A DNA stretch of 46,724 nucleotides, taken from the IMG/VR virus record IMGVR_UViG_2579778634_000020; one strand, given 5' to 3'. The position numbers were made by a program, and so were the translations under genes. The number at the start of each line of letters is the position of its first letter. Within the stretch, counting starts at the first letter, position 1. The notes beneath the pieces are model-generated. The model searched no databases, had not been told where the DNA came from, and worked only from the letters and a program-made list of their open reading frames with translations. Below are positions 16,566 through 34,925 of the stretch, piece by piece. The DNA comes from a virus (lineage: Duplodnaviria; Heunggongvirae; Uroviricota; Caudoviricetes).

Positions 16566-16568
16566 GTG

Positions 16569-18790: not shown

Positions 18791-18848
18791 ATTAGTACCT
18801 GGTTTAAGTCTTCCGACAGTTACGCTGCTCACCATCCGGATCGCAGCA

Positions 18849-18875: not shown

Positions 18876-18894
18876 GTTGTAATAAATGATTTAT

Positions 18895-20010
18895 TTAAAT
18901 CCCTGCTTTTCTGAATACCTGTGCATCACGCTCACGGAGCTGCTTCAGCGTCAGCCATTCGCCTTTATCGGTGTAAAATTCATCTGGCGACATACCACCA
19001 TCCCGAATCAGCTTTGCTCGGGTTTCCCCCACAATCTGTTTTTGTCTGGTGTAAGGCTGACGCAAAAACCATTCCCTGTAGGTTGTATCTCCGGCCACCA
19101 CGCCATCCATGCTGGCCCGCTCAGCCGGGGAAATATCGCGAACATCAATACCCAGTTCCTTCGCTGATTTCAGAATGAACGTTTCCGTTGAGCGGCAGCA
19201 GAAATGAATTTTTCCCGGCCCCTGCAAATAAGGCACGCTGTGACCTACAGGTTTATTATTCAGCGTATATTTGAGGCGATCCCTGATTCGACATTGTGGC
19301 GTAGTACGATTATCAAGCGTTGATAACCATTGCTTACCCTTAATCAAATCATTATTCGCGCTGGCAAAACTCTCACGGGCAGTAGCAGCAAGATGTCCAA
19401 CCGCTGTTTTTGCAATGCTGGCCGCATTAGCCCGGCTCATCTGCAATGCACCATCCTGAAATCCCTTACTGACATGTCCCCGAATTTTTCTTGCGATCTG
19501 CTCATTGGTATCCCCCAGCAAAAAACCCTGACGCACTGTATTTGTTATGCGTCTGAGCCGATCCGCCTCAAGATCTGAGGCCCACTCACTGAGCAGTCGT
19601 CCCTGGAATGGTCGCGCCATTGCAGCGGCATAAAGTGCATCAGGAGAGATACCAACCAGAGGGTGAACATCAGCAACAAAATCAGGTAGCATAGAATCAA
19701 ACAGACTTAACTGATAACCAGCCTCATAAATTGCCAGCTCGTTCAGCTCTCCGGAGAGACGGGTAAACATGCTGTTAATAGCAGCGCGGTTAACCTCTCT
19801 GACACTCGCCAGAAGTGACTCCAGGCGCGTAACGGTAAAACTACCAGGATCGAGGCTGTCCAGTGCTACCAGCAGGCGAGCTGTAAGCTCCGCATCGCTG
19901 TCATTCAGTATTTTCACCATTCTGGCAGCCACACCAGTGCTATAGCGGGATATCCAGACTGCATGAGCAATTGATTCATCACGCAGCCGTTCATTCACGG
20001 TTTGCATCAT
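18895..20010 (-). CDS. Head morphogenesis protein (Mu gpF / SPP1 gp7 family)
   Basis: 371-aa ORF immediately downstream of the portal gene, overlapping it by 20 nt. Family call from position and recalled composition. Confidence 0.75.
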   Translation of the reverse strand: MMQTVNERLRDESIAHAVWISRYSTGVAARMVKILNDSDAELTARLLVALDSLDPGSFTVTRLESLLASVREVNRAAINSMFTRLSGELNELAIYEAGYQLSLFDSMLPDFVADVHPLVGISPDALYAAAMARPFQGRLLSEWASDLEADRLRRITNTVRQGFLLGDTNEQIARKIRGHVSKGFQDGALQMSRANAASIAKTAVGHLAATARESFASANNDLIKGKQWLSTLDNRTTPQCRIRDRLKYTLNNKPVGHSVPYLQGPGKIHFCCRSTETFILKSAKELGIDVRDISPAERASMDGVVAGDTTYREWFLRQPYTRQKQIVGETRAKLIRDGGMSPDEFYTDKGEWLTLKQLRERDAQVFRKAGI

Positions 20011-21397
20011 TGATTTCCATCAGCATTACACTCTGATTTTTTAATTCATCGATCACTTCCTCTGGACGGGAATCCTGATCGATAAATTTCAACGCCTGCA
20101 ACACCCGAACCGCATCAATCTGACGTATATCACCGCCCTGACGCAATGACTGAACAGCCAGCGCGGAGGATGAGTCAAACACCTGGGCAGATACATCCAG
20201 TTCAGTGCGCACATCCACATTGCCACCGCAACTCTCTCCGATCCATTCCGCCATTATCTGGAGAATATTATCGAGGGCATCTTCGAGGGAGTTCGCCATT
20301 GTATAAAGCGGCGAGTTTTCCTGCATTCGCTCTTCATTAGTCTGATCAACAGATTTGGTGGATGTATTTTCAGCACGCAGAAGTTTAGCGCCGGCATGAC
20401 GCATCTGATTTTCCAGCTTCTCAAGTGATGTTTCGCCAGATTCTATCGCTGCGCCACTATGTTCAACATATTCGAGGCCATTTTTTGTTCTGTCCTCAAA
20501 AATCGTAGCGGTGGATGCACCAACCGTCAGTTCTTCATTCCTGTCCAGCCCGTAGGCCACCAGCAATGGAACGCGGGCAACATGAAGAATATTGTCCTGC
20601 TCGCTCTGGCTTTGCCAGTGCTTGATATTCAGCAAGCCAAGATTAAGCAATGGCGGTGTACCACGCATAAACCCTGTTTTCTTCGTATACAGTGTTACCA
20701 GAGGAATATCATCACGGCTGGTATTCCATGACTCATGAAGCGTCCAGACAGATTCGCCATTAGTACCTTCGCTGCGTCGATAAATTTCAACTCGACGGGG
20801 CATAATATGGCGGATCTGCTCCACCTTCTTCTGCCCGAAATCATCACCATCAATAATGATGACCTCTTTTATACGCAAATCAGTGAGAACAACTTTCCCT
20901 TTTTCAACTTTCGATTTCCATCCAATAACCTGGCGTGGATTCAGCATCGTAACGTACGGGCGACCACCGGCCGCGTTTTCATCGGCTTTTGTCCGAATCT
21001 CTTTCATATCCGTTCGTGGATAGTCCACCAGCGCATGTGCCACACCATACTGAAATGCGAGACTGAAAAATTGCTGCGCCCACACATCCAGTCGGCTCCC
21101 CTCCATGTCGATATTTTCTGCATATTCCCTGATTTTTTCCGGCGTTTCCTCACTCAATACTGTCGGCTCTGCAAATATGCGCCCAATATTTTGTTTGATG
21201 CTTTCTTCATACACAGGAAGTAGCGTAGCCACAGACAGGCGTTTTTTATAAGCGTCTTCATCTTCATTAGGCCATTTGGGGAGATAATTTTCCCCCTGCC
21301 TGCGCATTTCAAGCGTACCGCCCATCAATGCGTCGTTAATATCCCACGCCTCCAGCATATCGTTATAGTCGAGGTTGGGTGTTGATATATCAGCCAT
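19991..21397 (-). CDS. Portal protein
   Basis: 468-aa ORF directly downstream of the large terminase gene; size and position typical. Confidence 0.85.
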   Translation of the reverse strand: MADISTPNLDYNDMLEAWDINDALMGGTLEMRRQGENYLPKWPNEDEDAYKKRLSVATLLPVYEESIKQNIGRIFAEPTVLSEETPEKIREYAENIDMEGSRLDVWAQQFFSLAFQYGVAHALVDYPRTDMKEIRTKADENAAGGRPYVTMLNPRQVIGWKSKVEKGKVVLTDLRIKEVIIIDGDDFGQKKVEQIRHIMPRRVEIYRRSEGTNGESVWTLHESWNTSRDDIPLVTLYTKKTGFMRGTPPLLNLGLLNIKHWQSQSEQDNILHVARVPLLVAYGLDRNEELTVGASTATIFEDRTKNGLEYVEHSGAAIESGETSLEKLENQMRHAGAKLLRAENTSTKSVDQTNEERMQENSPLYTMANSLEDALDNILQIMAEWIGESCGGNVDVRTELDVSAQVFDSSSALAVQSLRQGGDIRQIDAVRVLQALKFIDQDSRPEEVIDELKNQSVMLMEINDANRE

Positions 21398-21399
21398 AA

Positions 21400-22710
21400 T
21401 TAAATCCGAAGTGATGTGACTCTTCCGGTCGGTTTGACAATAGGGAATTGCTTAACGATGAAATAACCTCCGGCATCATTCGGGTGATCATTGCCAGATT
21501 TTTTATCAGGCTCCCCCTTATCATCCCAGACCTGTTGCTCCAGAGATTCGGCATATACCGGACAACGCTTCACATTAACTTTATAGCGACGCTCACCATT
21601 GGCATTGCAGAACATTGCATTCATTGAGTTAACGCGATCTTTTACTGGCGGGTTCGAGCTGTTCACCACAACGTTAAAACCAGCCTGCTTAAGCTGGGCT
21701 ATATCCGTCGTACTTGCGTTACTTGATTTTCTGGAATCTCCGGAAGCATCTGGATAAATATAAATCTCCCTCACTTTCCGGTAATCATTCCCGTCATACA
21801 GCCAGAAGCGTTCTTTAATGATGCGGATCATATCCGGCGTATCGTAGGCATTGATGATTTCAGTTACCGCACATGGAAGCCCCAAACGCAGCACATGGAC
21901 GATCCCCGCCATCTTTCCAACGTTAAAATCCATCCCAATATAAATCGGCTCCCCTGGCTGCTCCACTTCTTCGCAATTATTCAGTTTCCGGTCAAACTGA
22001 TGGTAAACAGTACCACTTGTCAGGTTAGTAAACTGTCCTCGAAGATAGGCTTTAATCAGCTCTGGAGGGTATGATTCAAGAAGCGAAGGAATGTAATCTG
22101 CTGGCAGGTTCTTTTCATTATCGAAAGTAGATGCCTGCACCAGACCATACAGTGAGGCCAGCTCTGTTTTTTCACGCACGGCTTTAACAAACTGCTCGTA
22201 GACAAATTTGAATCCTTCCGGCGTGGTTGTAACGTCAATACCGTTGCGAAGTCCATCAATCTTATAACGCATACGCGCAATTATCTTGCGCCACGCCGTT
22301 CTGGCTTTTTCCTTCGGCAAAATGTCCAGTTCATCCACCAGCGCATTACCAATTTTGAAACCGACGATCGTTTGTGGCTTCTCCATCGATCTGCAGATAG
22401 TGGTTCCCCGATACTGGCGTCCGTAATAAAAGTGAACCTCTTTATTTCCCTCATTAATTTTTACGTTCAATCCCCAGTCAGCAGCAACTTCTTCCACTGT
22501 AGGGTAAAAAATATCGCGAATTTGGGGATACGTTGGCGCAAAATATCCCTGATTTATACCTGGATGCTCCCAAATCCCCTTGCATATGCCGCCACACCCA
22601 ACCCATGTTTTGCCCGAGCCAAAACCAGCAATATAGGCTTTAAATTTATGGGGCATTGAAAGAAATCGCGCCTGAGGCACATTAAGCGTCGGAGAGATCA
22701 TCTTCATCAC
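21400..22710 (-). CDS. Terminase large subunit
   Basis: 436 aa; N-terminal Walker A-like GFGSGKT and a C-terminal nuclease-like acidic region. Upstream of portal. Confidence 0.9.
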   Translation of the reverse strand: MMKMISPTLNVPQARFLSMPHKFKAYIAGFGSGKTWVGCGGICKGIWEHPGINQGYFAPTYPQIRDIFYPTVEEVAADWGLNVKINEGNKEVHFYYGRQYRGTTICRSMEKPQTIVGFKIGNALVDELDILPKEKARTAWRKIIARMRYKIDGLRNGIDVTTTPEGFKFVYEQFVKAVREKTELASLYGLVQASTFDNEKNLPADYIPSLLESYPPELIKAYLRGQFTNLTSGTVYHQFDRKLNNCEEVEQPGEPIYIGMDFNVGKMAGIVHVLRLGLPCAVTEIINAYDTPDMIRIIKERFWLYDGNDYRKVREIYIYPDASGDSRKSSNASTTDIAQLKQAGFNVVVNSSNPPVKDRVNSMNAMFCNANGERRYKVNVKRCPVYAESLEQQVWDDKGEPDKKSGNDHPNDAGGYFIVKQFPIVKPTGRVTSLRI

Positions 22711-23776
22711 TCCTTACTCTGGCATCAACCACATTAATATTGATCGCCACAGGCTGGGGATGTTCATTATCTTCCACCGTTTCGATCTCTTTGCGCAGCT
22801 TCTGGTTTTCCATTCTGCGCCGTTCAATTTCCAGTTCCTGTAGCCGTTTATCTGCACATAAAGCCCCGCCAGCAGAAAACAAACGCAACAATTCACGCCG
22901 GGCGGCAGCCTTATCCTCCAGCAGGATCTCAACGCCGAATTTTCCGAATTTTGCCCCTGCATATAATTGCCGCGCATCCCCATCAAGCAGAGTGGTATCA
23001 GCCATATAAAGCTGTCCCGTTCCCTCACCGCAGCACTTCGGGCAGTCCGGATTGGGTATGGCGTTATCAACAAAGCCGAGGCCTCCATATTCCGGTTCGG
23101 GTTTGCCATCTCTGGAAGCCTGCGCCGCTGCCTTGTCGAATTCTGCTATATCGCGCCACTGGTAGAGATGATTCTCGCCCCAGCAATAACGGCAGTTAAC
23201 ACGGCGAAATTGTGCAAGCTGATTGGGGTCGGCCAGGACAATGGCCATCAACTGACTCACCAGTAAATCCAGGTCTGCGGTATAGCGTTTCTGGTACTGA
23301 TTGCGGAAGTAGCTGATAGCGCGAAAAACCCTGGCATTTCTAAGCATACGACTGGCGTTGCTGTTAGCTGTCGCACCTTGCCCCTCATAACCGGCTAGTC
23401 GGTACGCCTCTGTCGGCTTTTTCCCCTGAGCAACAAGCATCGCAAACTTAGCCTGCTGGTCAGAAATGCCGAATTCATCGGGACAGAACGAAAATTCCTC
23501 CGCGTCGCCCTCATTCAGGCCCGCATCGAATACTGGCTTTTTTTCCTGAGATTTTTCGTTCCGCTTTTGTGCAGTCTGCGCAGATTTTTTCTGCGCACTT
23601 TTTTGCGCAGTTTTGCGCATTTCTGTCTGCGCATTTTTCGGAGGTTTTTTGATGTAACGACGGGCTGTTGCGTAATTCAGTCCCCTTGCTTCACACCATG
23701 CCACCGGAGATATACCGGAGCGGGTGTATTCAGCAATATACTCCTGCTGCAACGCCCCCCAGTCCGGTCTGCTCAT
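22682..23776 (-). CDS. Putative terminase small subunit / DNA-recognition component
   Basis: 364 aa with an N-terminal HTH-like segment (…YIAEYTRSGISPVAWCEARGLNYATARRYIKK…), basic linker, Cys cluster (CRYC…CPKCCGEG) and C-terminal coiled coil. Overlaps the large terminase start. Confidence 0.55.
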   Translation of the reverse strand: MSRPDWGALQQEYIAEYTRSGISPVAWCEARGLNYATARRYIKKPPKNAQTEMRKTAQKSAQKKSAQTAQKRNEKSQEKKPVFDAGLNEGDAEEFSFCPDEFGISDQQAKFAMLVAQGKKPTEAYRLAGYEGQGATANSNASRMLRNARVFRAISYFRNQYQKRYTADLDLLVSQLMAIVLADPNQLAQFRRVNCRYCWGENHLYQWRDIAEFDKAAAQASRDGKPEPEYGGLGFVDNAIPNPDCPKCCGEGTGQLYMADTTLLDGDARQLYAGAKFGKFGVEILLEDKAAARRELLRLFSAGGALCADKRLQELEIERRRMENQKLRKEIETVEDNEHPQPVAININVVDARVRSDEDDLSDA

Positions 23777-23779
23777 CAG

Positions 23780-24031
23780 TTAGTCCTGATTTTTATCCAC
23801 CCTGAGTAGTTCGCGCAGAGCAAAGGCATCCCCTTTTCTGGCAAGCTTAAACAATGCCGCTCGTAACTCGGCTTCACCTTTCGCTCTGCCCTTACGGATG
23901 GCCGCATAAAAATCTGTCATTGCTTCCCGATTTTCTTTCAGTCGGTTCAGATCAACATCCAGAACGTCAGCGATTTGTTGTGCAGTCATCCGGCACGCTG
24001 CCAGAGACTCGACTTTCGAATACGGAATCAT
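23780..24031 (-). CDS. Small HTH-like protein upstream of the terminase genes
   Basis: 83-aa ORF (…MTAQQIADVLDVDLNRLKENREAMTDFYAAIRKGRAKGEAELRAALFKLARKGDAFALRELL…). The start overlaps the 3' end of the upstream gene, so the true start may be internal. Confidence 0.45.
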   Translation of the reverse strand: MIPYSKVESLAACRMTAQQIADVLDVDLNRLKENREAMTDFYAAIRKGRAKGEAELRAALFKLARKGDAFALRELLRVDKNQD

Positions 24032-24899
24032 TTGTCACCCCTATTGATATGCAGGGTGTCTTCTTCCTGTATTTTTCGTGAAGGATTTTTACTGCAGCGT
24101 TGTTCCAGGTGACCTGATGGTGAATGCGTTTATGGCTGGCACCCATCAGTGAGATTTTTACGCACGACGGCGCATACATGACGGAGTAAAAACTTTTAAC
24201 GTAGGTTCCGGAATCCAGATACAGCTCGGTCATTCCGCCGCTGTTTTTCTGCGTCTGTTTCTGCCCTAACTGGACAGCACCGATCGTCATGAACAATTCA
24301 CCACAGCGACCGAGATTCGTGTACGTATTCACATCCTCGTTAATGCGCCCCATGAATGAGAACGGTCGATCAACCGAACAGATAAAGCTGTTCATTGCCT
24401 TGCGTTTCACCCACGAAGCATGGCCGCCATTGTCACCAAGAAAATCCCCGCCCTGCGACATAGCGATGGAAAGAGCAGGTATTGATTCGTAGTACGCCAG
24501 CATTTCAGAAAGGATCGCATCCAGTTTCCTTATCGGAAAATAGGCCTGGTCATAGTTGCGATCCACCCGAAACTGGAACTCGTGATAATCATCATCGAGC
24601 TGAATGAAGTATTTACACCCGACCAGTTTTGCCAGGTCGAAACAGGCATTACGGGCGTAAAAAATTGAGCGGCGGTCACCGAAATTATCGGCTTCGTCAA
24701 AACGACTGGCGATATCGGCTTTGGAAAACACCAGCACCTGTTCACCAAATTCAGCCATGTACTGATGCCGTGTCTTATCTTCATCATCAACAACGATAAA
24801 AATTTTCCCGGTATAGCCAGCACGACGCAACGTCCGGTAAGTCAGAACTTTGTCCGGTCGCCCGTGAGTCAGAATAAAGGCGCAAAAATCATCACGCAT
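23967..24899 (-). CDS. Uncharacterised soluble protein with GT-A-fold glycosyltransferase-like motifs
   Basis: Start ATG at 24899 with strong RBS GAGGAGGAGG. N-terminal pattern FCAFILTHGRPD … KIFIVVDDEDKT … KYFIQLDDDYHEF resembles the beta1 / DD / DxD layout of GT-A nucleotide-sugar transferases. No predicted TM helices. Motif-level inference only. Confidence 0.45.
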   Translation of the reverse strand: MRDDFCAFILTHGRPDKVLTYRTLRRAGYTGKIFIVVDDEDKTRHQYMAEFGEQVLVFSKADIASRFDEADNFGDRRSIFYARNACFDLAKLVGCKYFIQLDDDYHEFQFRVDRNYDQAYFPIRKLDAILSEMLAYYESIPALSIAMSQGGDFLGDNGGHASWVKRKAMNSFICSVDRPFSFMGRINEDVNTYTNLGRCGELFMTIGAVQLGQKQTQKNSGGMTELYLDSGTYVKSFYSVMYAPSCVKISLMGASHKRIHHQVTWNNAAVKILHEKYRKKTPCISIGVTNDSVFESRVSGSVPDDCTTNR

Positions 24900-25683
24900 A
24901 TTCCTCCTCCTCACCACCATGCATGATCTCCACCATGCGCTGCGTCATCCGGACAAATCCATTTTCAATAGCCTGCTGATAATCAATGATCACCAGCGCC
25001 GACTCCTCGAAAAAACACTGAATTTCAGCGGGGGCGTGAGCGTAATAGTCCGCAATTCTGCTGAAATTAAACACCGTGTGACGTTCTGCCGCACACAGGA
25101 GGAATTTCTCAATATCAGGCTCAAGAGACGCCGAACGTATCCGGCTGATCAGCTCCTGAGTTTTCGTATCGTCGTACAGTTCACTGATATCCGGTTTACC
25201 GCCCGACGGCTCATAAACAGGCGTATCAATTTTCGTCGTATACGGCTCCTCCTCATTTCCTGTACCGGGCAAAACATCCGTCAACAGTTCATCAATTTCT
25301 GTCGGGATGAAGCCTGTCAGGGAGACATCAAAATCAGCATTGATTAGGTCCGACAGCTCCATCCGCAACAGATCTTCATCCCAGCCAGCATTCATCGGCA
25401 GGCGATTATCTGCCAGGCGGTACGCCTTTTTCTGCTCATCCGTCAGGCCAGACAGAACAATGACCGGAACAGAATCCATTTTGAGCATTTCAGCCGCCAT
25501 AACACGACCGTGACCCGCAATAATTTCGCCCTTTTCGTCAATCAGCACCGGATTAGTCCAGCCGAATTGCTTAATACTTTCTACCAGTTGTGCCACCTGC
25601 TCAGTACTGTGCGTCCTGGCGTTGTGCGCATACGGTGACAATTCTTGTAATGGGCGATAGACTATCTTTAATTTCTCGCTCAT
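24892..25683 (-). CDS. ParB N-terminal-domain (ParB/Srx-fold) nuclease-like protein
   Basis: 263 aa. N-terminus …IVYRPLQELSPYAHNARTHSTEQVAQLVESIKQFGWTNPVLIDEKGEIIAGHGRVMAA… carries the ParB-box GHGR motif. Same position as ynaK beside trkG in K-12 Rac (from memory). Confidence 0.8.
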   Translation of the reverse strand: MSEKLKIVYRPLQELSPYAHNARTHSTEQVAQLVESIKQFGWTNPVLIDEKGEIIAGHGRVMAAEMLKMDSVPVIVLSGLTDEQKKAYRLADNRLPMNAGWDEDLLRMELSDLINADFDVSLTGFIPTEIDELLTDVLPGTGNEEEPYTTKIDTPVYEPSGGKPDISELYDDTKTQELISRIRSASLEPDIEKFLLCAAERHTVFNFSRIADYYAHAPAEIQCFFEESALVIIDYQQAIENGFVRMTQRMVEIMHGGEEEEYA

Positions 25684-25702
25684 ACAGCCTTGCTTTATGA
25701 AT

Positions 25703-25734
25703 AAAACGCACCCCAGCAGCCAGTGCTACTGGGG
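25703..25734 (-). terminator. Rho-independent terminator downstream of trkG
   Basis: Minus strand CCCCAGTAG-CACTGG-CTGCTGGGG (one G-U pair) followed by TGCGTTTTATT. Confidence 0.55.
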
Positions 25735-25820
25735 ACGGAGGTATTGCTGGTAAAGTTAGGTATTGGATCAATGAGTGAGTCAACATAATATTAAACTCAC
25801 AATTATAAATCAGCCATATA

Positions 25821-27278
25821 TTAGGAGCGCCAAAAAAAACCTGAAAACAATATAATAACAGGATAAATTTCAAGGCGACCAAGAATCATAGCTATGCACA
25901 TTAAACATTTTGCAATGTCATTAAGCACTCCGAATGACGATGCAGTAGCCCCAAAACCTAATCCCATATTATTAATACATGCAGCCACTGTTGCAAATGA
26001 TGTAAGAAAATCATATCCCATACCATTTAACACCAGTATAAAAAACACCGTGAAGAGAGTATAAAGAAAAAAGAAACTCCATACAGACCTCATTACACGA
26101 TCTGTAACTATCTTCCCTCCTACATTTACACTCAACAACGCTCTGGGATGAGAAAGCTGATTTATCTCGTGTTTGCTTTGTTTGAAAAGTATAAGAAATC
26201 GAAGTGACTTAATTCCACCACAAGTTGAACCTATACATCCCCCAAAGAAACTTGACAACAGCAAAAACACTATCGTGTGCGTGGGCCAACTTGCATAATC
26301 CTGCGTAGCTAAACCATTATCAGTGAGCATGGAGCTGGCAAGAAAAAACGAATGAATAAAACTTCCATGCAAGTCATACATACCTATATGCCAGACCTGG
26401 AAAGAGGTAACAATGATCACCCCTAAGGCTATTAACAGAAAGAAACGAAGTTCAATATCTCTGATTAAAGGTTTTATCGTTTTCCTGCTAATAACAATAT
26501 ACCAAAGAGTGAAGTTGAAAGCCGATAGCAGGGAAAAAGAACCAGCCACCAGCTCAACCAAATAGTTATTAAAATATCCGATACTCTCGCTATGAGTTGA
26601 GAAACCACCAAGCGAAACTGTGGAAATCCCGTGACAAATAGCATCAAACAAAGGCATTCCTGCAAGTCTATAACAGACAATACAAGCAATACCTAATAAA
26701 GAATAAGTTATCCACAGTGTCCGTGACGTATCGGCCAGGCGGGGAGTGAGTTTGTCATCCTTAAATGGCCCCGGCATTTCTGACTGATAAAGCTTTGCAC
26801 CACCAATACCCAATAATGGCAATACAGCAACCGCCAGAACAATAACTCCTAAACCACCTATAAAATTTAACTGTGACCGATAGTACAAATATGCCCGAGG
26901 TAATGAACTAACATCATCAATTACAGTTGCTCCTGTTGTTGTTATTCCAGAAACCCCTTCAAACAGAGCATCAATGAACGTTAAATTAAGTTCTGAGTCA
27001 ATCCATAAAGGGAATGCACTAATAACAGAAAACAAAATCCAAAACATTACAATTATAATAAACCCATCACGGGTACGTAATTGAATGCCAGATTTCTTAG
27101 TTGTATACCACGCTCCGCCACCAATGCAAAAAAATATAACGAAAGTTATAAAGAAAACGAACAGGCTTTTTTCTTTATAAAACAATGCTACAACCATTGG
27201 TGGCAACATTGAAAGACTATAGAGCCAAACCAGGAACCCACACATATGAGTAACAACTCTTACATGAGATGTATTCAT
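25821..27278 (-). CDS. trkG: Trk-system potassium uptake protein TrkG, prophage cargo
   Basis: Translation from the ATG at 27278 (MNTSHVRVVTHMCGFLVWLYSLSMLPPMVVALFYKEK…) matches Rac-encoded TrkG as I recall it. Multi-pass membrane protein. Noticeably AT-rich codon usage, own AT-rich upstream region and own terminator. Confidence 0.9.
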   Translation of the reverse strand: MNTSHVRVVTHMCGFLVWLYSLSMLPPMVVALFYKEKSLFVFFITFVIFFCIGGGAWYTTKKSGIQLRTRDGFIIIVMFWILFSVISAFPLWIDSELNLTFIDALFEGVSGITTTGATVIDDVSSLPRAYLYYRSQLNFIGGLGVIVLAVAVLPLLGIGGAKLYQSEMPGPFKDDKLTPRLADTSRTLWITYSLLGIACIVCYRLAGMPLFDAICHGISTVSLGGFSTHSESIGYFNNYLVELVAGSFSLLSAFNFTLWYIVISRKTIKPLIRDIELRFFLLIALGVIIVTSFQVWHIGMYDLHGSFIHSFFLASSMLTDNGLATQDYASWPTHTIVFLLLSSFFGGCIGSTCGGIKSLRFLILFKQSKHEINQLSHPRALLSVNVGGKIVTDRVMRSVWSFFFLYTLFTVFFILVLNGMGYDFLTSFATVAACINNMGLGFGATASSFGVLNDIAKCLMCIAMILGRLEIYPVIILFSGFFWRS

Positions 27279-27415
27279 ATCTAAATATTCTTTCAATTAT
27301 AACCACCTTGCTGCAATATTATGATTATACTGTATAAAATTTAACTCCTCTTAGATCTTACTTCACTGTTCCTTATGAAACAATCATCAAAATGAATCAT
27401 ATTGTAGTTAAGATT

Positions 27416-27880
27416 TTACTTTAAACACTGCTCGGTTATGTATTGCTGAGCACCTTCAAGTTGGGCCTGCATCATTACCAGTCGTTCCCGCAGGGTGAAA
27501 TAATCCCGTTCAGCGGTGTCTGCCAGTCGGGGGGAGGCTGCATTATCCACGCCGGAGGCGGTGGTGGCTTCACGCACTGACTGACAGACTGCTTTGATGT
27601 GCAACCGACGACGACCAGCGGCAACATCATCACGCAGAGCATCATTTTCAGCTTTCGCATCAGCTAACTCCTTCGTGTATTTTGCATCGAGCGCAGCAAC
27701 ATCACGCTGACGCATCTGCATGTCAGTAATTGCCGCGTTCGCCAGCTTCAGTTCTCTGGCATTTTTGTCGCGCTGTTCTTTGTAGGCGATGGCGTTATCA
27801 CGGTAATGATTAACACCCCATGACAGGCAGACGACGATGCAGATAACCAGAGCGGAGATAATCGCGGTTACTCTGCTCAT
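27416..27880 (-). CDS. Rz: Rz i-spanin
   Basis: 154 aa, N-terminal TM anchor then coiled coil; start overlaps the endolysin stop as ATGA; Rz1 embedded in the +1 frame. Confidence 0.9.
27475..27660 (-). CDS. Rz1: Rz1 o-spanin (outer-membrane lipoprotein)
   Basis: 61 aa entirely inside Rz in another frame. Lipobox LVVVGC, proline-rich ([19 protein letters not shown]). Confidence 0.85.
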
Positions 27881-28353
27881 ACCTCAATCTCTCTGACCGT
27901 TCCGCCAGCTTCTTTGAATTTTGCAATCAGACTGTCAGCCTTATGCTCGAACTGACCATAACCAGCGCCCGGCAGTGAAGCCCATATATTGCTGCAACGG
28001 TCGATAGCCTGACGGATATCACCGCGATCAATCATCGGCAAAGCGCCACGCTCTTTAATCTGCTGCAGCGCTACAGCATCCTGACTTTCTGGAGAAAAAT
28101 CTTTCAGGCCAAGTTGCTTGCGGTAGGCATCCCACCAGCGTGAAAGAAGCTGGTAACGTCCAGCGGCTGTTGATTTGAGTTTCGGATTTAGCGTGACAAG
28201 TTTGCGGGGGTGATCGGAGTAATCAGTGAACAGTTCGCCACCGACAATAACATCATAACCGTGATTTCTGGTTTTCTGCCGTCCGTTATCTGTTCCTTCT
28301 GACCATGCCACCATATCAAGGAAAGCTTTACGCTGGGAATTAAGTGTCTGCAT
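27877..28353 (-). CDS. R: Endolysin (lambda R-type lytic transglycosylase)
   Basis: 158 aa; N-terminal region [39 protein letters not shown]…YSDHPR is R-like from memory, including the catalytic Glu in WSEGT. Lies between the holin and Rz. Confidence 0.9.
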
Positions 28354-28356
28354 TAA

Positions 28357-28707
28357 TTACTCCTTATGGGCACCGAACTTGTTACCGATGACCCTCATTG
28401 CCGCACCACGAATAGCATCAACACCAATCAGCCCCACCCCACCACCAATGGCAACAGAAAGTGATTTAGGCCATCCGACATACTCAAGCGCGGATGCAAA
28501 GGTCAGCGTCAGAGCACCACAAAGCAGAATCTCAAGCGTTTTTCGTTTCCAGCCGCCGCCACCGCCAAAATAGGCAATGCGCAAACCAGCCATAATAATT
28601 GACATAACCACTGCACCCAGCGGCGTATCTCCACGCCACCAACTTTGTAAGAGTTCCAGTAAGTCAGGCCAGGAATGAGGGGCATTGTGCATTTTCATAA
28701 GCCTCAC
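28357..28707 (-). CDS. S: Holin with a dual-start motif (possible holin/antiholin pair)
   Basis: 116-aa ORF beginning MRLMKMH…, with hydrophobic segments and a charged C-terminus. Three in-frame Met codons at positions 1, 4 and 6, analogous to lambda S107/S105. Confidence 0.75.
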   Translation of the reverse strand: MRLMKMHNAPHSWPDLLELLQSWWRGDTPLGAVVMSIIMAGLRIAYFGGGGGWKRKTLEILLCGALTLTFASALEYVGWPKSLSVAIGGGVGLIGVDAIRGAAMRVIGNKFGAHKE

Positions 28708-28792
28708 CTCCGAGAGTTCGGATGGTGCTAAGTGTAAGATTCAGGCTCTCAGGCTTGCTAACAAGAAGTCGAGGATGTTTCCGGAGCCTAAC

Positions 28793-28821
28793 AACGAAAA
28801 AGCCCCGGGACATGCCGGGGC
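28793..28821 (-). terminator. tR'-like terminator upstream of the holin gene
   Basis: Minus strand GCCCCGG-CATGTC-CCGGGGC followed by TTTTTCGT, about 85 nt before the holin start. Confidence 0.5.
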
Positions 28822-28915
28822 CAGATGGAGTGCCAGATTAAGCTTCTGGCGGTATATACTCGTGTTTGATATCGTTAAATCGCCAAAAGTAACAATTCAA
28901 ACAAAGAGGATTTTT

Positions 28916-29077
28916 ATGTCTGAAAAAAACAAACCACAAGGTGAAAATAAACCTCAGCACCCCGTGGCACCAAAACCAACTCCAACACAAAGTACTACAG
29001 ACTTTGCTACACGTCGTGTTTTTGTTGGAGATTCTGCCGACTCAGTCATTGAACATATAAAAAAACAGCCGAGATAA
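28916..29077 (+). CDS. Small plus-strand ORF (53 aa), antisense to the late operon
   Basis: ATG at 28916 preceded by AAAGAGGA, 5 nt before the ATG. Encodes MSEKNKPQGENKPQHPVAPKPTPTQSTTDFATRRVFVGDSADSVIEHIKKQPR. Overlaps the 3' end of the minus-strand membrane-protein gene by 32 nt. Confidence 0.3.
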   Translation: MSEKNKPQGENKPQHPVAPKPTPTQSTTDFATRRVFVGDSADSVIEHIKKQPR

Positions 29078-29615
29078 ACATCGCCGCTACCGGAGCAAGG
29101 ATGGTATACATCCTTGCTTTATCGAGACTCGTGCGGATTTTCTCATTTTCCAACAGTAACTCTCTTGCTGTATCACTCAAGTCAACAAGGCGATACCTTC
29201 GTATAAGCGGCAATAACTTATCAGGTCCTAAATATCCTGCATCAGCGAATATTTTAAAGCTCGAGGGCTCCATATCCTTATATTTTTCATGATATAGATG
29301 ATCAGGAGGGGCATTGATCAGGCCCCTAACCTTCACAGATAAACCAGTACATACCAAGTAAATGGCGCACCATGTCCATAGTAATGTAAATGTGGTAATT
29401 CCGGCGGTGAGAAAATCGAAATTAGTTTTCTGTGTCAGCAATAAAAAAGATGAACCAATTCCAACAATCTGAATGTTCAGAAGTTTGTATCCATTCTCAA
29501 CATTGGTTTTGTTAGAAAGATGAATCTCTCGTATCGTCTCTTCCCCTTGTTTTTCAAGATAATCGACGAGCTCATCATCTACTCCTAAAAAATAATCTTT
29601 AGGTAGTTCTCTCAT
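29046..29615 (-). CDS. Membrane protein of unknown function, cargo gene between Q and the holin
   Basis: 189 aa with about three predicted TM segments (…LLNIQIVGIGSSFLLLTQ…, …LTAGITTFTLLWTWCAIYLVCTG…, …MYTILAPVAAMFISAVFLYVQ). Visibly AT-rich. Bracketed by terminator-like hairpins. Confidence 0.6.
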   Translation of the reverse strand: MRELPKDYFLGVDDELVDYLEKQGEETIREIHLSNKTNVENGYKLLNIQIVGIGSSFLLLTQKTNFDFLTAGITTFTLLWTWCAIYLVCTGLSVKVRGLINAPPDHLYHEKYKDMEPSSFKIFADAGYLGPDKLLPLIRRYRLVDLSDTARELLLENEKIRTSLDKARMYTILAPVAAMFISAVFLYVQ

Positions 29616-29721
29616 CTCACCTCCACATCCTGTACTGAAAACAATTTTACCAGAATGTCTCGATTCTAGGTATTCCGCCAGGAATCGCGCTCCAGAAATG
29701 AAACATCAGGTTCGCCAGTAC

Positions 29722-29758
29722 CAGAAACAACAAAACCCGCTCAATGGCGGGTTCTGGT
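29722..29758 (-). terminator. Terminator-like hairpin about 80 nt downstream of the Q-like gene
   Basis: Minus strand AACCCGCC-ATTGA-GCGGGTT followed by TTGTTGTTTCTGG; an outer CCAGAA/TTCTGG pairing extends the structure. Confidence 0.5.
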
Positions 29759-29836
29759 AAAGTTCATGCGCTTGGTTCGCCTCGCGATACAGCTTTGCGA
29801 AGCATACCGGAATTGAAGCAGTTTATGCGTAAAAAA

Positions 29837-30379
29837 TCAAGCTATTTTTTGAGCAAATGATTCTCGCATGGGAATATATAGGGCATACTCAGCAACAGCC
29901 AACCAATTAGCAATTCGCTTTTCGCATGTGCTAAAACACCACTCAGGATGTGCATCATTTAGCAATTCAGCCATTTTGCGCTTAGTCATCCCCCGTCCTT
30001 CATACCGTTGCCGGAGGACACTAATCAATCCAGGATGCTCTGCCAGCACCTCACTTATGACTCTATCAATACATAACGCCTCTGCATCAGTACAATGCGC
30101 CAGCCAGGTCTTTTGCTTGCCATTGATCATCTCTCGCAAAAACGCTTCCAGCTCAGGTTTCTCTATTCCCGCTTTTTTCATCCTGCGCAGGGCTTCATTG
30201 ACGGCTGTTTTCGTCAATTTTTTGGATGCCAGCAACTGGTTAAACATATTTCCCGTCTTACCGCCGCCAATATACGACCAGCGCCCCCACATGCGCAGTT
30301 TTCCCTGAATCCAGACACTTTCCAGCGTGGTGAGACGAAGGTGTTCCCCGCTTTTGCCTGTATTTGTTGGGTAAATCAT
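29837..30379 (-). CDS. Putative late antiterminator (Q-like)
   Basis: About 180 aa from the ATG at 30379, which overlaps the upstream gene stop as ATGA. Last gene before the terminator, cargo gene and lysis cassette. Positional call; the sequence is not lambda Q-like. Confidence 0.6.
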   Translation of the reverse strand: MIYPTNTGKSGEHLRLTTLESVWIQGKLRMWGRWSYIGGGKTGNMFNQLLASKKLTKTAVNEALRRMKKAGIEKPELEAFLREMINGKQKTWLAHCTDAEALCIDRVISEVLAEHPGLISVLRQRYEGRGMTKRKMAELLNDAHPEWCFSTCEKRIANWLAVAEYALYIPMRESFAQKIA

Positions 30380-30666
30380 AAATAACCTTCCTTTCTCCAG
30401 ATTTCTTGTGTGCGAAAAACACCTTCTGCATGCATCAGGCGTAATTCTTCTTTGGTGTAATCGCTGGTTTTTACCCGCCCGTCGATTAAATCGTGGCATG
30501 AGCTACAGGCAATCGCTGCCTGCATATCGTGTGGTTTTGTCGCTGTTCCGCACGTCCCCGCCAGCCTGTAATGCGCCAGCACAGATGTTTCGGGATTGTG
30601 ATTGCAGTAGCCAGGAATTCTGACGGTGCACATCTGCCCCCGCGCCGCTTTACGTAAATCCACCAT
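30376..30666 (-). CDS. YbcO-like (DUF1364) putative nuclease
   Basis: 96 aa: MVDLRKAARGQMCTVRIPGYCNHNPETSVLAHYRLAGTCGTATKPHDMQAAIACSSCHD…, closely resembling DLP12 YbcO as I recall it, with four conserved Cys. Translationally coupled to both neighbours. Confidence 0.7.
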   Translation of the reverse strand: MVDLRKAARGQMCTVRIPGYCNHNPETSVLAHYRLAGTCGTATKPHDMQAAIACSSCHDLIDGRVKTSDYTKEELRLMHAEGVFRTQEIWRKEGYL

Positions 30667-31265
30667 TACGCAAACTCCAGCAGCTGCGCGGCCACATTTT
30701 CGACTTGTTCCGGAGAGGAAAATTTACGGAACAGAATCCAGTTCCACAGCACATTCAGAACAGATTTATAAACCTGCTGAAACTCGGTTTCGTCCATATT
30801 CGCAAAAGCGATAGATTTTGCCCGACGCCCGCGGCTACCGTCCTGATAAAAATGTTCGGTGTAAAATCCAGCCTGAATGGTTACCCACTCGCGAAAAGCC
30901 TCAAACGACTTTAGCAATGCCGTATCCCGGGTTCTGCGTGTCGCAACTGTATTCAGATATTGCTCTGCGGCATCACTCAGGGCTGGCGTGTGTTCCCGAC
31001 CAACTGATTCGCACAGGTAATCAACGAAACCAGACAGCAGTTCTCGTTCGCGAGGCGTGATCGCCCCACCGACCGGAGTCCAGTAATCGAATCCCAGTTG
31101 CAGGAGTTTGAAAAAACGCTTGTGGAATGCGTAGTTACGCACACGCTTAAAGTCTGCGTGTATCCACTCGCCTATTTTGATTTGATGCAGAAAATCACAA
31201 CTCTCCGGCGTCGCCGGGAGAAGTAATCCGGAAGAGGTTTGTTTGACCAGTTGTATATGCGCCAT
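30666..31265 (-). CDS. DUF1367-like protein (YbcN/YdaW family)
   Basis: 199-aa ORF directly upstream of the YbcO-like gene, at the position of ydaW in K-12 Rac. Family call from synteny and recalled similarity. Confidence 0.6.
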   Translation of the reverse strand: MAHIQLVKQTSSGLLLPATPESCDFLHQIKIGEWIHADFKRVRNYAFHKRFFKLLQLGFDYWTPVGGAITPRERELLSGFVDYLCESVGREHTPALSDAAEQYLNTVATRRTRDTALLKSFEAFREWVTIQAGFYTEHFYQDGSRGRRAKSIAFANMDETEFQQVYKSVLNVLWNWILFRKFSSPEQVENVAAQLLEFA

Positions 31266-31537
31266 TTCTTAATCTCTCGATGGCGCAGCGCAGCAGATGC
31301 CAGTTGTTCAGGCTGACGTATGAAGTATAAATAAACTGGCTCCAGTGTAAAGCCCCACCTTAATGGAATAAAAACCAAACAACAGATTGCTGGGATACAA
31401 ACAACGCTTATTATTAAAAGCGGTTAAACAAATTAAATTTTAATGTTATGCAAATCTGCCAGATCACCATAATATCTCATTTGAAAACCGCTGAAATAAC
31501 AACCCTATTAGGGTTAATCATATTAAGGTGAGTAAAT

Positions 31538-31624
31538 ATGGAAAACAACAAATCTGCACATTACGTTCCTTTTTTATCTGTAATACTTTTTGTTTTATGC
31601 TGTGCGTGGGCATTATTTTTATAA
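31538..31624 (+). CDS. Candidate small hydrophobic peptide (28 aa)
   Basis: ATG at 31538 preceded by AAGGTGAG; encodes MENNKSAHYVPFLSVILFVLCCAWALFL, a polar head then a single hydrophobic helix. Convergent with hok. Confidence 0.3.
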   Translation: MENNKSAHYVPFLSVILFVLCCAWALFL

Positions 31625-31730
31625 AAATATTCACAGATAAAATATACCCGCCAAAGTTGGTTAAGTGCGGGTGCGTTGAGGATGCCTGACTCATCAGAGG
31701 TGGCGAGGGATTTCTCCCTCGCCTGGTCTC

Positions 31731-31883
31731 TCACTCCTCAGGTTCGTAAGCTGTGAAGACAGCGACCTCCGTCTGACCGGTTCGGATTTGTACCTCGCAG
31801 AAGTCTTTCCTTGTTACCAGTGCCATCACAACGACGGTAATACAGATGACAATCAGGGCGGTTAACATCGTCTTTTGCTGCAT
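31731..31883 (-). CDS. hok: Hok/Gef-family type I toxin (HokD/RelF-like)
   Basis: Minus-strand translation MQQKTMLTALIVICITVVVMALVTRKDFCEVQIRTGQTEVAVFTAYEPEE (50 aa), near-identical over most positions to E. coli HokD/RelF as I recall it (MKQQKAMLIALIVICLTVIVTALVTRKDLCEVRIRTGQTEVAVFTAYEPEE). A 9-bp perfect hairpin (31701-31722) follows the stop. Confidence 0.85.
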   Translation of the reverse strand: MQQKTMLTALIVICITVVVMALVTRKDFCEVQIRTGQTEVAVFTAYEPEE

Positions 31884-31897
31884 CACAGCCTACTTAC

Positions 31898-31932
31898 CCT
31901 TACCTTTCGTTCAAGCGGTAAGGTCACTTTTT
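31898..31932 (+). terminator. Plus-strand hairpin plus T-run antisense to the hok 5' region (candidate Sok-like RNA terminator)
   Basis: CCTTACC (31898-31904), 12-nt loop, GGTAAGG (31917-31923), then TCACTTTTT. It lies just upstream of the hok start codon on the opposite strand. No convincing promoter was identified. Confidence 0.3.
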
Positions 31933-32031
31933 CTGTTGTGTGCTAACCAACAAACCTCTTTTATCTGCATTAAAAATCGTTATCATGTCATCCTCAACCT
32001 GTTAATAGCCTATTATGGACTTTAGTAAACA

Positions 32032-33861
32032 ATGAGCACTTCCGCATACAAGAGCAAAATTCGAACACTCCAGTGCGCGTTAAAAAACGGTGAATTTGAA
32101 CCATTCATACAACATATCCGTTTTCCATACTTTAAAAATATAGAGCAGAATGCAAGGATCGATTTTCAGTTCCCTATAACGGCTTTAGTAGGAAAAAATG
32201 GAACTAATAAAAGTTCTGTTATCAAAGCGCTATTTGGTTGCCCACATGGTAAAAATATAACTCGTTATTGGTTCACAACTGAAACAGATGAGTTTCCTGA
32301 CCTAAAACTTGCTGATGGCAGTTCTCTTAAACCTAGATATATATATGGATATAAAAATGCTGATGGCCGTTTAGTTGAAATACTCCAAGCACGTATCAAT
32401 GCTACCAAGAAAACAATCGATTATTGGGAAACAAGTCGACCATCTGTTGGTGATAACATGGAGAGTATTTCGGATGATCTGGGTGCTAATAGTAATGCAA
32501 CCAGATGGAAAAAAATCAAGAAGGGATTGGTTTTCCTAGATTTCAGATCGGAAATAAGTGCATTTGATAGATGTATGTATCACTCTGATTTTAAATTAAG
32601 AAAGAAGAAGAGTGGTGTATTAATTACAAAGCAAGACTATATCAGAAGCAAATCTAAATATATAAAGAAAGCTTTTGATGAAAAGCTAAGTAATTTAAGA
32701 CTCTGGGGGGCGGAAACCATTGTTAAAAATATAACCTTGGCGCCAGAACTAGTTGAGCACGTCTCATTTATATTAGGGAAAAAATATAAAGTCATTAAAT
32801 TTCTTGAGCATCGGTTATTTGGAACCAGAGGAGGAACCGCTTTACTTTCAACTGATAAGTTGAACTATACAGAAGCGTTTGCTGGAAGTGGTGAATTTGC
32901 AATAGTTTCACTAATACTCAATATTTATTCGGCCAAACCTAATTCATTAATTCTTCTTGACGAACCAGAAGTTTCACTTCACCCTGGTGCACAAAAAAGG
33001 ATGATGGATGTTCTGTACTCTATTGTTGAGCAGAAAAAACATCAAGTGGTAATATCAACCCATTCTCCTGTTATTGTGAACACTCTTCCCAAAGATGCCA
33101 TTAAATTATTTGTTTTTGATGAAGAGAGTGAAACAGCTAAAATAGTTCAAAATATAGCACCGGATGAAGCTTTTATAGAGCTAGGGCATGATATTAACAA
33201 GAAAACAATAATTGTAGAAGATAAATTAGCTAAAGCAATTATAGATAAAGCGATTAAAAATGATGAAAGATTAAGCTTATCATTTAGTGTAAGTTATATA
33301 CCAGGTGGTTCGGAGACCATTTTAAGCAAGCATCTTCCCAGTTACGCTGTGGTAGAACGCAATGATATTTTGTTTTTACTTGATGGTGATAAAAACAAAA
33401 AAATAAAACCAGTAAGAATTAGTGAAATTGCTGATGCTGATTTAGTTAATACAATGTGCAAATATTATGGTTGCGAGTTAATTATCAATGCCAGTGGTAG
33501 TAATGGCAAAAAAAATGAACAAGAATCTAATAGACTCAAAAGGCAAGTGCTTGAGTATGCATTCAATAAAGTGCAGTATTTACCATTTGATACTCCCGAA
33601 CAATTACTCATTGAAAAGGCAATTACGCCAAGTGAAAAAGAAATAATTGATTCACAGACCTGGAGTTCTAATGATCCAGAACTGTATAAGAATCAAATAA
33701 GATTATTAGCGCAACACCTGTATGATAAAGAAGAAGTAAATGCAGAGGAAATTTTTTGCCTCCAACAAATGATGACCGCAAGACTTAAAAATGAATTGCC
33801 TGAATTTATAAAAATAAGAAAAATAATTACTCAGGCTCTTGACCGTGGTATCATTAGGTAG
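32032..33861 (+). CDS. OLD-family-like nuclease candidate: ABC-type ATPase with a C-terminal TOPRIM-like region
   Basis: 609 aa. P-loop variant LVGKNGTNKSSV (54-62), Walker B and D-loop LILLDEPEVSLHP, H-loop VVISTHSP; C-terminal TIIVEDKLAKAII … ILFLLDGDKNKK gives a conserved Glu and a DxD about 55 residues apart as in TOPRIM. Architecture and size resemble P2 Old / GajA-like proteins. Visibly AT-rich gene. Confidence 0.7.
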   Translation: MSTSAYKSKIRTLQCALKNGEFEPFIQHIRFPYFKNIEQNARIDFQFPITALVGKNGTNKSSVIKALFGCPHGKNITRYWFTTETDEFPDLKLADGSSLKPRYIYGYKNADGRLVEILQARINATKKTIDYWETSRPSVGDNMESISDDLGANSNATRWKKIKKGLVFLDFRSEISAFDRCMYHSDFKLRKKKSGVLITKQDYIRSKSKYIKKAFDEKLSNLRLWGAETIVKNITLAPELVEHVSFILGKKYKVIKFLEHRLFGTRGGTALLSTDKLNYTEAFAGSGEFAIVSLILNIYSAKPNSLILLDEPEVSLHPGAQKRMMDVLYSIVEQKKHQVVISTHSPVIVNTLPKDAIKLFVFDEESETAKIVQNIAPDEAFIELGHDINKKTIIVEDKLAKAIIDKAIKNDERLSLSFSVSYIPGGSETILSKHLPSYAVVERNDILFLLDGDKNKKIKPVRISEIADADLVNTMCKYYGCELIINASGSNGKKNEQESNRLKRQVLEYAFNKVQYLPFDTPEQLLIEKAITPSEKEIIDSQTWSSNDPELYKNQIRLLAQHLYDKEEVNAEEIFCLQQMMTARLKNELPEFIKIRKIITQALDRGIIR

Positions 33862-33884
33862 TGATTCTGGATGCAGAGGGAAAA

Positions 33885-34925
33885 ATGAAAAAAATCAAAG
33901 TGTTTGACTTCTTTTCCGGTTGTGGTGGAACCAGCCAAGGTTTCCATCAAGCTGGAATGGATATTGTTTTTGGCCTCGATTTCGACGTTGATGCAGCCAG
34001 TTCATTTCGTGCAAATTTCCCGCAGGCTGCTTTTATTAACTCGGACATTAGGTTAATCGACAACAATGCCATAAACAAGTTAGTAAAAAAACATCGTAAT
34101 GATTACATTCTTTTTTCAGGATGTGCGCCTTGTCAACCGTACTCTAAGCAAAACTCAAATAAGAAAAATGATGATCCACGATTAGATCTATTAAAGGAAT
34201 TCAGTCGCTTTGTAGAGCATTATATGCCTGATTTTATTTTTGTTGAAAACGTGCCAGGAATGCAAAAGTTTAACAAAAATGAAGGAACATTCATGATGTT
34301 TTTAGAAATGCTTTCATCAAAGGGATATAGTGTAGATTATAAAGTAATGCCAGCTGCGTGGTACGGTGTACCACAGACGCGAGAAAGATTAGTGCTCATT
34401 GCATCCAAGGATTTTTATGTCGCATTGCCTTCTCCTACACATGGGGTTGGAAATACTCCCTATTCAACAGTAAAGGACTGGATCGCTAATTTACCGAAGA
34501 TAGAAGCAGGAGAAAAGCATAATAGTATTCCTGATCATGAAGCTGCACGCTTATCAGAGCTTAATTTACGTAGAATAAAATGCACTCCTGAAGGTGGAAG
34601 TCGAGAATTTTGGCCAGATGAATTGATTTTAGAATGCCATCGTAACCATAAAGGGCATACAGACGTATATGGACGTTTGAGTTGGGACAAACCAGCCAGC
34701 GGACTAACAACTCGTTGTATTAGCTATTCAAATGGACGTTTTGGACATCCAACACAAAATCGAGCAATATCGGTTCGTGAAGCAGCGTGTCTACAAACAT
34801 TTCCTTTGGATTATAAATTTATTGGTTCTTTGCAATCTCGGGCTCGTCAAATAGGAAATGCGGTCCCTCCGAAGATGTCTGAAACGATTGGAAAACATTT
34901 GCTTAATATAATCAAAGCCTCCTAG
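33885..34925 (+). CDS. DNA (cytosine-5)-methyltransferase
   Basis: Motif I FDFFSGCGGTSQGF, motif IV GCAPCQPYS (catalytic PC), motif VI ENV, motif VIII QTRER, motif X GNAVPP. ATG at 33885 with RBS AGAGGG; an in-frame GTG at 33861 overlaps the upstream TAG. Confidence 0.9.
   Translation: MKKIKVFDFFSGCGGTSQGFHQAGMDIVFGLDFDVDAASSFRANFPQAAFINSDIRLIDNNAINKLVKKHRNDYILFSGCAPCQPYSKQNSNKKNDDPRLDLLKEFSRFVEHYMPDFIFVENVPGMQKFNKNEGTFMMFLEMLSSKGYSVDYKVMPAAWYGVPQTRERLVLIASKDFYVALPSPTHGVGNTPYSTVKDWIANLPKIEAGEKHNSIPDHEAARLSELNLRRIKCTPEGGSREFWPDELILECHRNHKGHTDVYGRLSWDKPASGLTTRCISYSNGRFGHPTQNRAISVREAACLQTFPLDYKFIGSLQSRARQIGNAVPPKMSETIGKHLLNIIKAS

Follow-up and report, generated by a model that had tools for sequence, protein, structure and literature searches.

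The DNA examined here (IMG/VR record IMGVR_UViG_2579778634_000020, Caudoviricetes; 46,724 nucleotides (nt), called the window throughout) is, judged by its gene content, a complete Rac-type lambdoid prophage, and this account concerns the potassium transporter gene trkG in its late region. The gene lies between the last gene of the lysis cassette, Rz, and the first gene of the packaging module, which encodes a ParB-like protein; this position is referred to below as the cargo slot. The initial annotation had described a full-length TrkG flanked by the lysis cassette and the ParB-like gene; this is borne out by the open reading frame (ORF), the Pfam match and the neighbouring genes. In the direction of transcription the locus is made up as follows:

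27416-27880, minus strand: Rz i-spanin gene, last of the lysis cassette and directly upstream of the trkG segment (Pfam Phage_lysis, 5.6e-53)
27475-27660, minus strand: Rz1, embedded in Rz (ORF with a lipobox)
27425-27396, minus strand: second promoter-like site, TTTAAA-18-TATGAT, reaching 10 nt into the 3' end of Rz
27297-27415, minus strand: AT-rich putative upstream regulatory spacer, which travels with trkG (composition, conservation and the K-12 literature)
27329-27324, minus strand: perfect -10 TATAAT within this spacer
27279-27296, minus strand: six extra codons (MKEYLD) from a TTG at 27296, the probable true start of a protein of 491 amino acids (aa)
25821-27278, minus strand: trkG coding sequence as annotated, 485 aa from an ATG; subunit of a TrkH-family K+ transporter
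25738-25820, minus strand: spacer downstream of trkG, holding the 3' junction of the cargo (homology limits on both sides)
25700-25737, minus strand: intrinsic-terminator-like hairpin and U-tract, resident at the slot (pattern scan and fold)
24892-25683, minus strand: ParB_N-domain gene, a full-length ynaK and the first gene of the packaging module (Pfam ParB_N and near-identical annotated loci)

The product of trkG matches the Pfam model TrkH (PF02386) over its full length (E = 5e-145; 484 bits against a cutoff of 27 bits; residues 40-483) and the TrkH-family model TIGR00933 (415 bits, cutoff 331 bits). TrkH of V. parahaemolyticus (3PJZ/4J9U) aligns with residues 7-485 (E = 1e-120), and at the sequence level the four pore-loop glycines of that protein are retained (TTTG, LGGF, DNG, NMG). 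The NCBIfam TrkH equivalog NF008020, however, gives only 450 bits, far under its cutoff of 866 bits, which argues for a TrkG clade distinct from TrkH; its members, 60-79% identical, occur across the Enterobacterales. TrkG of the window and TrkG of E. coli K-12 are 100% identical in amino acids, the genes differ at two nucleotides, both synonymous, and the 137-nt spacer 5' of the gene is identical, so that published data on K-12 apply directly. K+ uptake by K-12 TrkG is TrkA-dependent and Na+-stimulated, and the main Trk transporter in K-12 is TrkH (PMC9898762).

The annotated start at 27278 is probably six codons short and the protein 491 rather than 485 aa long: the uninterrupted minus-strand ORF spans 25821-27296 with a TTG start, and a Shine-Dalgarno (SD)-like AAGGTGG (27309-27303) stands 6 nt ahead of this TTG, with no SD sequence ahead of the annotated ATG. 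Both TTG and SD are kept in the diverged copies of E. coli E600003 and E. albertii and in the chromosomal orthologue of E. fergusonii, all of which are treated below. The Pectobacterium orthologue also starts with TTG, and many TrkG homologues are 491 aa long, with a non-Met residue where the annotated Met stands.

Upstream of trkG lie Rz/Rz1, a lambda-R-like lysozyme gene and an S-type holin gene; downstream follow the ParB_N gene, a gene of the TET-associated glycosyltransferase (TAGT) family, terS and terL. Across 5565-27880 the window shares 98.8% identity with strain 13E0767, in which this region is annotated with tail, head, portal, terminase, ParB, trkG and Rz genes; with ON470614 it shares 98.3% in a stretch that takes in the lysis genes, the Q-like gene and YbcO. 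At the right end of the window lie the racR-side genes, recET, ralR, xis and int. The Rac prophage of K-12 corresponds to the prophage of the window minus two blocks, 13870-25429 (head and packaging genes and the 3' part of ynaK) and 27861-35717 (lysozyme, holin and the Q-like region), with 25430-27860 retained. Both deletions end about 0.4-0.6 kb from trkG and leave between them an island of Rz'-trkG-ynaK'. As K-12 Rac lacks both blocks, it is only in the window that trkG sits within a potentially functional late operon.

In its composition trkG is foreign to the phage genes that flank it. Its G+C content (GC) is 38.1% overall and 32.3% at third codon positions (GC3), compared with 45.8-52.3% and 44.7-54.7% in ten non-cargo late genes around it; synonymous codons ending in A or T make up 71% in trkG versus 52% in these neighbours (chi-square p = 3e-14), and the codons ATA and TTA are enriched 4- to 5-fold. 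Across the 46.7 kb, 5.7% of all segments of 1458 nt are as AT-rich as trkG, and all others of them lie in a single further cargo island at 31.2-35.0 kb. The spacer upstream of the gene (27279-27415) has a GC of 25.5%. The description in the initial annotation of a gene visibly richer in A and T than its flanks, preceded by an AT-rich region, is confirmed by these values, and GC and codon usage set trkG clearly apart from its neighbours. The foreign nature of trkG in Rac has been textbook knowledge since 1991.

The core of the upstream spacer (27395-27294) is 93% identical between the window and E600003 and 88% identical between the window and E. albertii, whereas third codon positions of trkG agree at only 79% and 65%, respectively: a non-coding block is better conserved than the synonymous sites of the gene that it precedes. 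The stretch AGTATAAT from this spacer is also retained in the chromosomal orthologue of E. fergusonii, which has the TATAAT at 27329-27324 and the SD/TTG block in common with the window. Genomic SELEX with sigma-70 holoenzyme identified a constitutive trkG promoter in K-12, one of very few inside prophages, and its authors judged that trkG was inserted along with its promoter (PMC5811629). A lux fusion is active whose primers, mapped onto the window, delimit a fragment equivalent to 27279-27788; in K-12 the mRNA levels of trkG and trkH are similar, and trkG mRNA increases in hns and hns stpA mutants, the repression by H-NS/StpA being partial (PMC9898762). Since K-12 Rac possesses neither a Q-like gene nor a late promoter, expression of trkG there must be autonomous. 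The conserved block and the published data on the identical K-12 sequence together support the autonomous expression of this cargo that the initial annotation had claimed.

Among 5426 complete E. coli genomes, 1593 have the 1.9-kb trkG segment, nearly always between Rz and ynaK, and the identity is 99% or above in 1517 records. TrkG of E. ruysiae is 100% identical in amino acids, and that of E. albertii is 93% identical (84% nucleotide identity). Comparison of the window with trkG of E600003 (90.6% identical) gives a nonsynonymous divergence (dN) of 0.019 and a synonymous divergence (dS) of 0.445 (dN/dS 0.043), values indicating that the gene is under purifying selection between two prophage-derived lineages. 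It appears intact across genomes, judged from DNA identity of at least 99%, the names given to it in the annotation of 30 sampled records (in one of them an IS5 lies close by), a protein cluster of 4894 members and dN/dS. With this frequency and this degree of constraint, the proposal of a conserved lysogenic-conversion gene stands, and in relatives trkG is conserved, not decayed.

Two copies of trkG lie outside any prophage, with no phage genes within several kb:

E. coli E600003: orphan trkG between iraM and icd (L003 8001-9700), 90.6% nucleotide identity
E. albertii NBRC 107761: orphan trkG between yebY and pphA (L014 2800-4470), 84% nucleotide identity

Both retain 25-56 nt of the 3' end of Rz ahead of the AT-rich spacer, which suggests that the Rz-trkG junction is ancestral to all these lineages and that the orphans are prophage remnants. 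For the same reason we rejected the icd-locus copy as a self-moving 1.6-kb cassette: about 56 nt of the Rz 3' end are still attached to it. The gene has therefore outlived its prophage at least two times besides K-12 Rac, and its survival at two loci and in the decayed Rac of K-12 argues for selection at the level of the host. The limits of the cargo can be read from both sides. Homology with the Rz genes of trkG-less prophages ends at the Rz stop codon; downstream, homology among the trkG lineages ends 4-50 nt past the trkG stop codon (about 50 nt in the icd-locus copy, about 4-25 nt in E. albertii), and homology to trkG-less prophages starts near 25750. Direct or inverted repeats flanking trkG were sought as a sign of transposition, and only short AT-rich chance matches were found. 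Orthologues with moderately AT-rich sequence (GC 42-43%) are located in E. fergusonii (79%), on ordinary chromosome between porin genes and hchA, and in Pectobacterium (75%), where the chromosomal gene adjoins ychF and pth. Given such AT-rich chromosomal orthologues away from phages, capture from an enterobacterial chromosome is the simplest and probable origin of trkG.

Related prophages that lack trkG share the packaging module with the window and carry other cargo in the slot: SA31-1 has LT-IIa enterotoxin A and B genes, 52F4 a KTSC-domain gene and a small ORF, M8 and STEC307 have small hypothetical ORFs, and E. coli W has a 60-aa hypothetical ORF with a spacer of about 400 nt. A slot with variable content of this kind matches the definition of a moron (PMC2629481), and LT-II toxins are known to be carried by full-size Rac-like prophages (PMC5917428). 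SA31-1 (L006 6134-7268 and 8877-10127) possesses, besides LT-IIa A/B, a pertussis-like ADP-ribosyltransferase/AB5 B-subunit pair in a further slot between the Q-like gene and the holin gene. This Q-holin slot, the position of Stx or pertussis-like toxins in related prophages, is occupied in the window by a 189-aa ORF (29046-29615, minus strand; GC 38.9%), which matches nothing in Pfam, NCBIfam or PADLOC, has a strong terminator after it (28822-28801) and looks like a second moron.

The first hairpin after trkG, 84 nt beyond the stop codon, precedes the ParB-like gene (25737-25707): CGUCCCCAGUAGC-ACUG-GCUGCUGGGGUGCG pairs into a stem of 13 bp, interrupted by one bulge, and is directly followed by UUUUAUU at 25706-25700, with the ATG of the ParB-like gene 16 nt beyond this U-tract. 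Folding of the 71 nt that contain it gives -23.3 kcal/mol (z = -3.2 versus shuffles). The placement in the initial annotation (25703-25734) was essentially right and is refined here to 25700-25737. Five trkG-less prophages (52F4, SA31-1, W, M8 and STEC307), which share the ParB-TAGT-terS-terL module with the window, have a longer hairpin at the same position, followed by UUUUUUAUU:

L005 5793-5884, L006 5790-5881 and L032-L034 3651-3742: long terminator hairpin of the trkG-less relatives, before the ParB-like gene

This version occurs in 81-86 E. coli genomes. Among the five hairpins four stem pairs show compensatory double changes, which suggests that the structure is under selection. The 3' arm of the window terminator, its T-tract and the leader to the ParB-like ATG align to the terminator of the trkG-less prophages; where trkG is present, other sequence stands in place of the distal 5' arm, and an inner 5' partner pairs to give a new hairpin of lesser length, so that a terminator appears to have been maintained across the recombination joint. 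This homology implies that the terminator was not carried by the trkG insert, and the most fitting view is that it is fixed equipment of the cargo slot, not of trkG, which would halt transcription of the cargo before the packaging genes during lysogeny. Calling it the gene's own terminator, as the initial annotation did, is correct in function, as it is the first one after trkG, but not in history.

Further features are relevant to transcription of the late region:

29837-30379, minus strand: candidate Q-like late antiterminator gene, DUF1133 family (PF06576, 5e-109)
29902-29873, minus strand: candidate late promoter, TTGGCT-18-TATATT (pattern scan only)
29756-29731, minus strand: candidate first terminator, hairpin and T-tract (pattern scan only)
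28801-28822, minus strand: second strong terminator-like hairpin, in the gap that separates the Q-holin cargo ORF from the holin gene (8 pairs, of which 7 are G-C; T-rich tail)

The Q-like protein scores 27 bits against PF06530 (Phage_antitermQ), just over the cutoff of 26, and the gene is annotated as 'antitermination protein Q' in ON470614. The genes follow each other in the order Q-like, cargo, holin, lysozyme and Rz, and all genes between 30379 and 5565, from the Q-like gene down to the tail genes, are co-oriented on the minus strand. The candidate promoter and first terminator would, by their pattern matches, resemble the pR'-tR' arrangement of lambda. From the gene order, the Q-like gene and the lambda paradigm, it is a reasonable inference, in line with the read-through proposed in the initial annotation, that Q-modified polymerase would have to cross three terminators before it arrives at the ParB-like and terminase genes, the terminator behind trkG being one of them.

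Taken together, we consider it very probable that the late region of this Rac-type prophage carries trkG as a foreign moron with expression of its own, active in the lysogen, presumably terminated at the hairpin of the slot and presumably read through on induction. An ancestral lambdoid phage would have captured the gene together with its promoter and 5' leader, and the insert would have become fixed right after Rz, where the lysis cassette meets the packaging module. In the lysogen, a sigma-70 promoter of its own, located in the AT-rich spacer, would drive trkG, partly damped by H-NS/StpA; its mRNA would end at the hairpin and U-tract, the ParB-like and packaging genes presumably staying silent, and TrkG would mediate Na+-dependent K+ uptake together with TrkA of the host. 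Upon induction, Q-modified RNA polymerase would start at the late promoter beside the Q-like gene, ignore the slot terminator as well as the two upstream of it, and read through trkG into the packaging genes. The promoter, the control by H-NS and the transport activity in this scenario are taken from the literature; identity, position, composition, conservation, purifying selection, the conserved upstream block and the slot-resident terminator come from the present comparison.

Several observations weigh against this interpretation. A search with a synthetic ParB-5'/Rz-3' junction as query revealed an exact empty site in none of the 5426 complete E. coli genomes, i.e. no case in which this Rz and this ParB-like gene are adjacent without trkG, with both within about 900 bp. 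Prophages with and without trkG differ also in their lysis cassette; the insertion is consequently deduced from relatives that are not otherwise identical in this region. The U-tract of the terminator is short (UUUUAUU). Promoter prediction in the AT-rich spacer 27279-27415, which the initial annotation had proposed as a check, did not help: a consensus scan gave 7 matches against 8.6 expected from shuffles, and the best -10 has a poor -35, so that the evidence for the promoter derives from conservation and the literature and not from the scan. GenBank 'phage' records with trkG, finally, resemble predicted prophage regions and not sequenced virions. We rejected these records as proof of active virions; ON470614, for instance, runs from the integrase gene to within the tail genes.

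Other explanations differ from the favoured one in the history of the terminator or in the role of the gene. The terminator at 25700-25737 might belong to a trkG cassette and have arrived with the gene: it is the first after trkG, and the 5' arm of the hairpin, CGTCCCCAGTAGC, is unlike the 5' arm in trkG-less relatives, hence part of the hairpin is specific to the trkG version. This is unlikely, because the copies of E600003 and E. albertii lose homology 4-50 nt past the stop codon and lack the hairpin, because trkG-less prophages can be aligned with the 3' arm, with the T-tract and with the 16 nt to the ParB-like ATG, a region present in 81-86 genomes without trkG, and because the chromosomal trkG orthologues have other genes downstream.

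With respect to function, trkG could primarily be an auxiliary gene of the lytic cycle, a Q-driven K+ importer that sustains translation or counters K+ loss, its expression in the lysogen being secondary. Its co-orientation with the late genes, its place within the late unit between lysis and packaging and its retention in complete prophages would fit such a role. Against it stand the persistence of an intact trkG under purifying selection after loss of the surrounding phage genes at three independent loci, the gene's own conserved promoter block (PMC5811629) and expression near the trkH level in K-12, where the Q-like gene and the late promoter are missing (PMC9898762); besides, a membrane transporter produced minutes ahead of lysis is of doubtful use. 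We regard this explanation as very unlikely. At the other extreme, trkG could be a neutral, H-NS-silenced hitch-hiker whose frequency simply reflects how well Rac-type prophages have done at the ttcA site. The gene is indeed AT-rich and H-NS-repressed, and TrkH is the main Trk transporter of K-12 (PMC9898762). Neutrality is contradicted by a dN/dS of 0.04 over a dS of 0.45, by 93% amino acid identity with E. albertii TrkG at 84% nucleotide identity, by survival of the gene where flanking phage genes were deleted, and by expression near the trkH level and measured transport activity (PMC9898762), so that we attach hardly any probability to it.

Beyond its expression in the lysogen, trkG might also act as a late gene, a second role in which massive Q-driven transcription supplies an extra K+ importer that raises phage yield, with the covarying terminator acting as an insulator of the slot. 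We put this forward as a speculation with little chance of being right. If true, a late K+ importer could provide ribosomes with K+ or counter an efflux triggered by infection or by abortive-infection systems, and the insulator would allow any cargo, be it trkG or an LT-II toxin, to be expressed in the lysogen without leaking into the packaging genes.

Apart from trkG, some other regions of the window deserve mention. The only other region as AT-rich as trkG is 32032-34925 (plus strand; GC 32-40%), which runs opposite in direction to the phage genes and encodes two proteins, an ABC/OLD-type ATPase of 609 aa (PADLOC HEC-04, 1.7e-34; ATPase-Toprim, PtuA/AriA/GajA-like) and a C5 cytosine DNA methyltransferase of 354 aa (MTase_II, 1.4e-96). 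The region is probably cargo of a defence or restriction-modification-like kind, and strain 13E0767 has other genes at this position. The packaging module opens with the ParB_N protein and the TAGT (PF20691, 6.5e-35; 'GREB1-related' in RefSeq) at 23967-25683 (minus strand). At its N-terminus the ParB-like protein is also similar to the corresponding part of ParB-methyltransferase fusions (PADLOC MTase_II, 1.7e-38), and no TET/JBP gene adjoins the TAGT gene; the two may form a DNA-modification or packaging-associated pair. An Rfam scan of the whole window detected only RalA, the antitoxin small RNA of the RalR/RalA type I toxin-antitoxin system (44990-45168, minus strand; RF02694, 218 bits), and no family in or near trkG.

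Compared with its core-genome paralogue TrkH, as represented by the V. parahaemolyticus structures 3PJZ and 4J9U, TrkG shares the fold family, the full-length alignment and the pore-loop glycines; it differs in falling under the TrkH equivalog cutoff, as expected from a separate clade, and, unlike TrkH, in its Na+-dependent transport and the repression of its gene by H-NS (PMC9898762). The closest known case is trkG of K-12 Rac, with an identical protein, an identical spacer and the same neighbours, Rz upstream and ynaK/ParB-like downstream; the difference is that the prophage here is complete. For K-12 Rac, the foreign origin, promoter, H-NS control and function of trkG are already known (Schlosser et al. 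1991, as cited in PMC9898762; Tanudjaja et al. 2022, PMC9898762). To this the present analysis makes small additions: the slot-resident, covarying terminator, the sharing of the slot with LT-II cargo, the orphans scarred by Rz, the chromosomal orthologues and the probable TTG start.

The morons of lambdoid phages, such as bor and lom of lambda or the 'ant moron' of the P22 group (PMC2629481), are likewise extra genes unrelated to the functions of their flanks, and trkG agrees with them in its deviating composition, its independent expression and a slot whose content varies among related phages. It departs from them in that the downstream terminator is conserved with the slot and not with the inserted gene, and in that no relative was found whose site is exactly empty. 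The LT-II Rac-like prophages, for which we rely on Jobling 2016 as cited in PMC5917428, have the same ParB-TAGT-terS-terL module, the cargo slot and the conserved terminator. Their lysis cassette differs, with a GH108 endolysin and no lambda-type Rz, and their Q-holin slot holds a second toxin pair where the window has the unannotated 189-aa ORF. The cargo of SA31-1 consists of the LT-IIa A and B toxin genes and not of a transporter; in the context of an intact prophage, trkG thus occupies the same interchangeable slot as the LT-II enterotoxin genes of related prophages.

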